From assembly GCA_964551015.1 (NCBI GenBank), contig CAZKBP010000003.1, positions 149,327 to 213,326 of the forward strand: 64,000 nt of DNA, given 5' to 3'. Shown in pieces: positions 15,138 through 15,225 of the stretch. The notes beneath the pieces were generated by a model, which made no database searches, was not told the DNA's origin, and saw nothing but the letters and a program-made list of their open reading frames with translations. The DNA is from an uncultured Cytophagaceae bacterium (lineage in GTDB: Bacteria > Bacteroidota > Bacteroidia > Cytophagales > Microscillaceae). Made by a program: the position numbers and the translations under genes. Positions within the stretch are counted from its first letter, which is position 1; every line of letters begins with the position of its first letter.

Positions 15138-15225
15138 AAATTCACTTTCAGCGAAATTTCGCTTGACTTTTTTGGCTCACCCACGTATATTTGAAATGTA
15201 AATTCACTTTCAGCGAAATTTCGCT
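15138..15225 (+). promoter_or_regulatory. Putative glyoxylate-shunt promoter (TTG 15164, TAtaTTTG 15185..15192) flanked by two identical 26-nt direct repeats, each containing the perfect palindrome AGCGAAATTTCGCT (15150..15163 and 15212..15225)
   Basis: Exact direct repeat AAATTCACTTTCAGCGAAATTTCGCT appears twice, 62 bp apart. Between the copies lies a Bacteroidetes sigma-A type -33 TTG and -7 TAnnTTTG with 18-bp spacing, about 70 nt upstream of the aceB ATG. Confidence 0.5.

Follow-up and report, generated by a model that had tools for sequence, protein, structure and literature searches.

The window, by which is meant the whole 64-kb stretch of DNA that was analysed, carries the glyoxylate-shunt genes aceB and aceA in an order that is kept in most of the compared loci, and upstream of aceB lie a promoter and two copies of a repeat (Table 1). 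Directly upstream of aceB, at 10327-15085 on the forward strand, are genes for a FIST-domain protein and for a 1183-aa hybrid kinase with PAS, HisKA, HATPase, receiver and Hpt domains. These were considered as a dedicated regulator of the operon and rejected: a homologue is found near aceB solely in one related locus (L004), where it is 3 kb off, and the hybrid kinase is therefore probably not a dedicated partner of aceB. The spacer between aceB and aceA holds, at 16963-16988, a near-perfect 26-bp palindrome (AAGCAGATAGTGG/CCGCTATCTGCTT) with no T-run after it; a hairpin between the cistrons that adjusts the ratio of aceB to aceA is one possible role, the binding of another protein a second.

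Table 1. Features of the aceB-aceA operon and its upstream region, in window coordinates.
Feature	Position	Strand	Remarks
Repeat unit, copy 1	15127..15163	+	37 nt; final 27 nt (15137-15163) identical to copy 2
Distal operator O1 (predicted)	15150..15163	.	Perfect AGCGAAATTTCGCT; last T also opens the -33/-35 element
-33/-35 element TTG(ACT)	15163..15168	+	TTG at 15163-15165; first T common with O1
Bacteroidota-type -7 box TATATTTG	15186..15193	+	Exact TAnnTTTG
Repeat unit, copy 2	15189..15225	+	37 nt, 34 of them shared with copy 1; identical over 15199-15225; 5′ end lies in the -7 box
Proximal operator O2 (predicted)	15212..15225	.	Second perfect AGCGAAATTTCGCT; 34 nt 5′ of the aceB ATG
aceB, malate synthase A, 534 aa	15260..16864	+	Pfam MS_TIM-barrel 1.5e-115, MS_N, MS_C; first gene after the promoter
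aceA, isocitrate lyase, 424 aa	17028..18302	+	Pfam ICL 3.5e-111; second gene of the operon

Two exact copies of the 27-nt sequence TAAATTCACTTTCAGCGAAATTTCGCT start 62 nt apart, with 0 matches expected from shuffles, and the similarity of the copies reaches 37 nt at 34 of 37 positions. The original prediction had described an exact repeat of 26 nt upstream of aceB-aceA; the two copies and their 62-bp spacing stand, and the length is 27 nt. Each copy contains, as had been predicted, a perfect 14-bp palindrome, AGCGAAATTTCGCT, which forms its 3′ end and in which the half-sites AGCGAA and TTCGCT surround a 2-nt centre (AGCGAA-N2-TTCGCT), and a TTCAC flank found 4 bases 5′ of the palindrome in copy 1 (15141-15145) recurs in copy 2 (15203-15207). 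Throughout the 64 kb, O1 and O2 are the only matches to AGCGAAATTTCGCT at up to 2 mismatches, and a scan of the window with a position-weight matrix built from related sites scored them at 26.4 and 25.4 bits respectively, with the next best position at 7.2 and no further operator site. The palindromes are separated by 48 bp and their centres by 62 bp, which is about 6 helical turns.

The sequence upstream of aceB agrees with the Bacteroidota sigma-A promoter pattern (TTTG at -33 and TAnnTTTG at -7, at the usual spacing). The TTG and the TA of the -7 box are 20 nt apart and, read as the sigma-70 hexamers TTGACT and TATATT, the two elements are 17 nt apart and show 10 of 12 matches; the sigma-A type promoter that had been proposed between the repeat copies is thus present with both its elements, TTG and TATATTTG, but not with the 18-bp gap ascribed to it. 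Transcription would start near 15199-15202, about 7 nt past the -7 box. The right half-site of O1 merges into the -33 TTG, confirming that one operator abuts this element, and the -7 box begins 22 nt past O1, whose centre lies near -43 relative to the predicted start. O2 begins 18 nt past the -7 box and corresponds to about +13 to +26, with its TTCAC flank at about +4 to +8, so that the second operator, which had been placed on the transcription start itself, is found just downstream of the predicted start.

The upstream region was compared across 80 aceB loci, one genome per species (81 with the window), the nearest relatives in aceB being Microscillaceae MAGs at 77-78% protein identity, which makes the source of the window a Microscillaceae species (Cytophagales) not sampled before; its exact aceB protein is recorded in Logan run SRR6462995 alone. 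Of the 81 loci, window included, 62 have the palindrome, at up to 2 mismatches, upstream of aceB, and the footprinting in related genera that had been put forward as a check therefore favours the site. The groups that bear it are Microscillaceae, Raineya, Thermonemataceae, Catalimonadaceae, Spirosomataceae, Pontibacter, Flectobacillus, a SAR324 MAG and 4 Anaerolineae, across which the consensus before aceB is AGCGAA-WW-TTCGCY, and about 1 Mb of compared loci contains a single match (up to 2 mismatches) away from the position upstream of aceB. The half-sites are about 95-98% constant at each position, free variation is confined to the two central bases and no compensatory changes are seen; constant half-sites around a variable centre indicate a two-fold DNA site that is contacted by a protein, rather than an RNA stem.

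The palindrome is also fixed in position with respect to the promoter. Counted where the TTG comes after the palindrome, the -7 box (TAnnTTTG, exact or with 1 mismatch) starts exactly 22 nt past the palindrome not only in the window but in about 20 further Cytophagales loci, and most Cytophagales loci have GCTTG at the end of the palindrome. Given this fixed position, the palindrome looks like an operator. An additional TTCGC half-site, 11-12 nt past the palindrome and within the -33/-7 spacer, is seen in more than 30 loci, and many have a mirror-image GCGAA 16-17 nt 5′ of the palindrome. Most related loci combine a single palindrome with outer half-sites 17-18 nt away; the window promoter lacks these outer half-sites and has a second full palindrome instead.

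The 5 nearest relatives (L001-L005) also have twin sites around the promoter, 61-71 bp apart and differing in their flanks. Their order is the distal site at the -33 element, the -7 box, 8-10 nt, TTCAC-N4 and the proximal palindrome, and by this common layout the operator pair is ancestral in the clade. Four Anaerolineae loci (L076-L079) likewise have twin sites, around a TTGACA-16-TATACT promoter and with TTCAC-N4 before the proximal site; TTCAC-N4 or TTCTC-N4 precedes the palindrome in L001-L009, in L017-L019 and at the proximal sites of L076-L079. Among the distances between twin sites, those of 51, 61-63 and 82-84 bp come near to whole helical turns, 71 bp (6.8-6.9 turns) is a poorer fit and spacings of 99 bp are off whole turns.

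In 49 of the 80 related loci, a divergent gene encoding a protein of about 500 aa with XRE helix-turn-helix and M78 domains adjoins aceB, and in all 49, which span three phyla, the palindrome lies in the shared spacer. Where no such gene is adjacent, the palindrome is found in 13 of 32 loci, the window among the 13; the co-occurrence of site and regulator gives a Fisher p of 2e-10, uncorrected for phylogeny. No other regulator gene is conserved beside aceB in the compared loci, and no IclR-type gene was seen beside it in the window or in the compared loci. The absence of an adjacent RamB-type gene, as originally predicted, holds for the whole window, where tblastn found no RamB-like gene, nor did a profile HMM search of all open frames of at least 50 aa. 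In the nearest relative, MAG JAABSX01 (aceB 78% identical), the regulator is unlinked: contig 18 carries aceBA with the twin sites and contig 4 the regulator (P0013), and three further members of the regulator clade are likewise unlinked from aceB. An autoregulatory site was considered as a general feature of the clade and set aside, given that the palindrome is missing upstream of both unlinked regulator genes that were checked (L082 and L083); autoregulation is therefore not general.

The regulator of the related loci follows the domain order of the ScfR family, an N-terminal XRE helix-turn-helix and then an IrrE/M78-like domain: L028:4324-5820 matches Pfam HTH_3 at 6.3e-16 and Peptidase_M78 at 1.3e-07, and both domains are precomputed for nearly all of 120 homologues; homologues carry the JGI/KEGG label K07110, 'fatty acid utilization regulator'. 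The best NCBIfam model is RamB (E = 1e-15, residues 12-320), but the score of 57-61 bits stands against a cut-off of 700 for the RamB equivalog; Pfam PF09856 (ScfRs/DUF2083) was not detected in L028:4324-5820 at E <= 0.01 and is precomputed in 1 of the 120 homologues only (P0056). The failure of these curated sequence models indicates a distant ScfR clade and not an equivalog of actinobacterial RamB. In alignments of 23 and of 32 sequences, Anaerolineae and SAR324 included, the cysteines C383 (in HYCRRW) and C474-X2-C477-X4-C482 are invariant, and their pattern is that of the [4Fe-4S] ligands of Mycobacterium tuberculosis PrpR (MtPrpR), Cys363 and C447-X2-C-X4-C455 (PMC6765138). Searches of the PDB with phmmer and with a 23-sequence profile matched helix-turn-helix proteins alone and did not reach PrpR. 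With an AlphaFold model of the regulator (pLDDT 80.8), the top six Foldseek matches are MtPrpR chains (6CYY/6CZ6/6CYJ/6D2S; E = 2.7e-12 to 5.2e-09, target TM 0.63-0.66), followed by IrrE/PprI, and the link to PrpR thus depended on the structure model, sequence profiles having missed it. Judged by its domain order, its cysteine ligands and its modelled fold, the candidate is a distant member of the ScfR (RamB/PrpR) family, and the regulator of the operator can with fair confidence be named as a protein of this type. The ScfR fold and ligands, taken together with the failed sequence models and the different operator, place the candidate in a divergent clade whose DNA specificity is its own.

In Corynebacterium glutamicum, the class 1 RamB represses aceA, aceB and pta-ack when acetate is absent, within a wider carbon-metabolism regulon, through an actinobacterial 13-bp motif of the AAAACTTTGCAAA type. 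This protein is the closest functional analogy to a repressor at O1 and O2, but the motif is different and the candidate reaches 57 bits against the cut-off of 700 for the RamB equivalog. The Escherichia coli IclR represses aceBAK at its promoter in response to central metabolites; the likeness lies in the promoter repression of a glyoxylate-shunt operon and the difference in protein family and motif. At the gal promoter, identical operators, OE and OI, stand on either side of the promoter, whole helical turns apart, and one oligomer of GalR holds them in a DNA loop. The two identical operators that flank the promoter in the window are similar in arrangement, and a loop is conceivable here from the 62-bp spacing and the tetrameric state of related proteins.

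Closer in family is the RamB of Paracoccus denitrificans (class 2, ScfR), which is encoded divergently from the malate synthase-isocitrate lyase operon and controls acetate assimilation; it contains a [4Fe-4S] cluster, binds CoA esters and is both activator and repressor of the glyoxylate operon, using two near-identical boxes upstream of ms, both of them needed, that are 18 bp apart and 82 bp upstream of ms (PMC10370305). The divergent orientation of the regulator gene (in the 49 of 80 related loci) and the two near-identical boxes are shared with this system, whereas the sites described here are 14-bp palindromes of different sequence, have 48 bp between them and flank the promoter, and their regulator belongs to a distant Bacteroidota/Chloroflexota clade, with nothing RamB-like in the window and an unlinked gene in the nearest relative. 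In M. tuberculosis, PrpR (Rv1129c) and RamB (Rv0465c) are tetrameric, sense acyl-CoA and control icl1; the PrpR tetramer binds CoA and acyl-CoA through a cluster-dependent pocket, is mainly an activator of the methylcitrate genes and has an operator composed of TTTGCAAA plus TTTGCgAA, one base apart (PMC6765138). The candidate resembles MtPrpR in its domain order, in its Cys and C-X2-C-X4-C ligands and as its best structural match, but has about 14% sequence identity to it and a different operator, AGCGAA-N2-TTCGCT. The use of two boxes is common among ScfR proteins (PMC6765138, PMC10370305), and the window also has two identical boxes, but these are AGCGAAATTTCGCT with a 48-bp gap and agree neither in sequence nor in spacing with closely set TTTGCAAA-type boxes a fixed distance apart. 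By analogy, the system of the window may resemble in its working the glyoxylate operons that RamB controls in Corynebacterium, Mycobacterium and Paracoccus.

A scan of metagenome contigs for TTTAGCGAAATTTCGCT returned at least 120 matches. Among the matches listed, 22 adjoin aceB, aceA or the regulator gene, and 45 fall within long ORFs; the latter were rejected as regulon sites, being coding and looking like chance, and taken as a whole the matches listed are for the most part coding or unrelated. Others among those listed are directly upstream of acyl-CoA dehydrogenases (L123, L130 and L175), of fadB-like genes (L115 and L137), of ETF genes (four contigs), of aconitase (L167) and of the PEP carboxykinase gene pckA (L196). 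At the fadB and acyl-CoA dehydrogenase genes the palindrome lies 1-5 nt past a TAnnTTTG-type box, which is exact in L115, L123 and L207 and has 1 mismatch in L130. Proteins of Saprospiraceae and Lewinellaceae are the closest to that of L115. The fadB-thiolase operons of Flavilitoribacter nigricans, Lewinella cohaerens and a Saprospiraceae MAG are preceded by the palindrome at a distance of 95-159 nt, and in each case it is the sole good match within 8.4 kb. These Saprospiria sites amount to an independent footprinting of a second target and fit a regulator of fatty-acid and acetate use. The palindrome therefore does occur elsewhere, upstream of other fatty-acid and acetate genes in metagenome contigs and in Saprospiria genomes, which was one of the two points on which the original prediction had staked itself. 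The distribution suggests a fatty-acid/acetate regulon under the palindrome, and the same regulator appears to control fatty-acid breakdown genes across Bacteroidota; the window itself has no beta-oxidation gene among its ORFs of at least 250 aa.

Three further groups of matches were noted in the same scan. Among those listed, sites at ilvD (L161 4397, L173 3256 and L182 7935) lie between a MurQ-like SIS gene and ilvD; here the palindrome is accompanied by a downstream TTCG half-site that is conserved in the three contigs, and ilvD would be an unexpected target for a fatty-acid regulator. A single human-gut locus with a GC content of about 0.5, represented by at least 11 contigs (L088, L106, L109, L111, L119, L151, L152, L176, L179, L187 and L199), has the identical 14-mer in a conserved non-coding stretch, with neither aceB nor the regulator near it. 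A repeated non-coding element, in which the palindrome stands amid an array of GCGA-rich half-sites, is found in at least 10 contigs with few ORFs (L108, L112, L125, L126, L142, L149, L154, L156, L165 and L168, from samples Ga0056114, Ga0056130 and Ga0209680); given that in L157, a low-coding contig of similar kind, a fragment of a reverse transcriptase adjoins the palindrome, this repeat may be eukaryotic host DNA. The human-gut locus and the low-coding repeat were both set aside as unrelated to the regulon.

It is suggested that the palindrome is most likely a conserved binding site for an acyl-CoA-sensing regulator of the RamB/PrpR type that is encoded elsewhere in the genome. It is probable, if some way from certain, that the two copies serve as a repressor operator pair, through which an ScfR-type regulator encoded outside the window controls aceB-aceA. 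O1 and O2 would be occupied by a factor of about 500 aa of the ScfR kind (RamB/PrpR/PccR), which begins with an XRE helix-turn-helix, continues with IrrE/M78-like and GAF-like domains and has near its C-terminus a Cys motif holding a [4Fe-4S] cluster. Given that O1 merges with the -33 element and O2 lies just past the start, the occupied sites would block the binding or the escape of RNA polymerase and keep aceB-aceA off. Sites at -33, within the spacer, or on or just past the start favour repression, with a CoA ester as the predicted inducer. If the factor behaves as PrpR and RamB do, growth on acetate or fatty acids would yield an acyl-CoA or CoA ester whose binding would alter the protein and free the promoter. 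A single tetramer may hold both sites and loop the promoter, which is compatible with a spacing of 62 bp, or about 6 helical turns, and with the tetrameric state of the relatives. A dimeric regulator had originally been envisaged at the operators: their standing as operators is upheld by the conservation and fixed position of the palindrome, but the characterised relatives of the candidate are tetramers and not dimers (PMC6765138).

The same sites and the same type of regulator could instead act mainly in activation, or as a dual switch in which liganded protein at O1 recruits polymerase and unliganded protein at O2 represses. O1, with its centre near -43 and abutting the -33 element, is in the position of a class II activator; furthermore, both boxes of Paracoccus RamB are needed for the activation of ms-icl on acetate, yet it represses on succinate (PMC10370305), and MtPrpR activates prpDC (PMC6765138). 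This scenario deserves consideration but is unlikely, given that the extra half-site of more than 30 loci falls between -33 and -7, where a bound protein would block polymerase, that the sites at beta-oxidation genes are on the start directly past the -7 box, again a position at which polymerase would be blocked, and that the window promoter is already good, with its 10 of 12 sigma-70 matches and its exact TAnnTTTG. It could also be argued that the palindromes are operators of a different transcription factor and that the ScfR-like gene is near aceB through common function only, since 13 loci, the window included, have the site without an adjacent regulator and since the operator is unlike the known ScfR boxes (PMC6765138). 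This is improbable: it would need a perfect co-occurrence with the ScfR gene (49 of 49 where adjacent, in three phyla), the relative's MAG retains the regulator elsewhere in its genome, no other regulator is conserved by aceB, the upstream histidine kinase recurring in L004 alone, and a 14-bp two-fold site would suit a dimeric pair of XRE helix-turn-helix domains.

A role of the palindromes as RNA, with O1 and its T-run terminating the upstream histidine-kinase gene and O2 forming a leader hairpin of aceB, might be read from the run TGACTTTTTT that follows O1 and is scored as terminator-like, and from the leader hairpin with O2, which folds at -8.4 kcal/mol (z = -3.4). The stems are weak, however, that of O1 having about 5-7 pairs at -6.1 kcal/mol (z = -1.85) and falling short of the stable G+C-rich stem with a U-run of an intrinsic terminator; O1 lies upstream of the promoter, Rfam 15 covariance models gave no match at E <= 1 over 14900-15500, and the site is kept in 49 loci whose neighbour is divergent, so that there is nothing to terminate. 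As it is the sequence that is conserved, with invariant half-sites and no compensatory changes, an RNA role is highly improbable. Scarcely credible, finally, is a functionless repeat that arose by recent local duplication, which the original prediction had named as the other ground for its own refutation. The two copies do agree throughout 27 nt, of which 13 nt are flank, and at 34 of 37 positions overall, and the identical 13-nt flank is probably a recent duplication or gene conversion, since the flanks of the two sites differ in relatives. The palindrome itself, however, is shared by the aceB upstream regions of different families and even phyla, and twin palindromes stand around the same promoter, with diverged flanks, in L001-L005 and independently in Anaerolineae.

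A repressor operator pair for an ScfR-type regulator therefore remains the preferred reading. The cassette of regulator, operator and aceBA is also found in Anaerolineae (L076-L079) and SAR324 (L070), around 5750-7580, with an aceB identity of about 60%, like that of distant Bacteroidota. This identity, and the same twin layout around a sigma-70-type promoter, suggest that the whole cassette was transferred between phyla. More tentatively, and with the balance tipping slightly to the side of doubt, it may be proposed that there is a new clade of [4Fe-4S], acyl-CoA-sensing ScfR proteins in Bacteroidota, Anaerolineae and a SAR324 MAG, with a 14-bp operator of its own (AGCGAA-N2-TTCGCT), a regulon of aceBA, fadB-thiolase, acyl-CoA dehydrogenases, ETF, pckA and aconitase, and, in the lineage of the window, one tetramer that loops the in-phase operators of aceBA.

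The literature searched contained no description of this motif, nor of a Bacteroidota regulator of aceBA or of beta-oxidation, in agreement with the earlier statement that the regulator of the glyoxylate shunt in Bacteroidetes is not established. The analysis supplies a candidate for it, which KEGG-based pipelines label automatically as K07110/ramB with neither motif nor experiment behind the label, together with a sharp 14-bp operator that is specific enough for genome scans and a first outline of the regulon. How Cytophagales, Saprospiria and related heterotrophs of sea and soil control their use of carbon sources thereby becomes directly testable, and the ScfR family, studied until now in Actinobacteria and Proteobacteria, gains a divergent clade whose DNA specificity is different.

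Two observations concern other parts of the window. An 833-aa ORF at 30750-33251 on the reverse strand contains Major Vault Protein domains (MVP_shoulder 1.5e-30, Vault_3 and Band_7) and is, judged by these domains, a bacterial homologue of the eukaryotic vault shell protein. At 37614-41188, also on the reverse strand, a PP2C phosphatase gene adjoins one for a Ser/Thr protein kinase that bears WG beta repeats.
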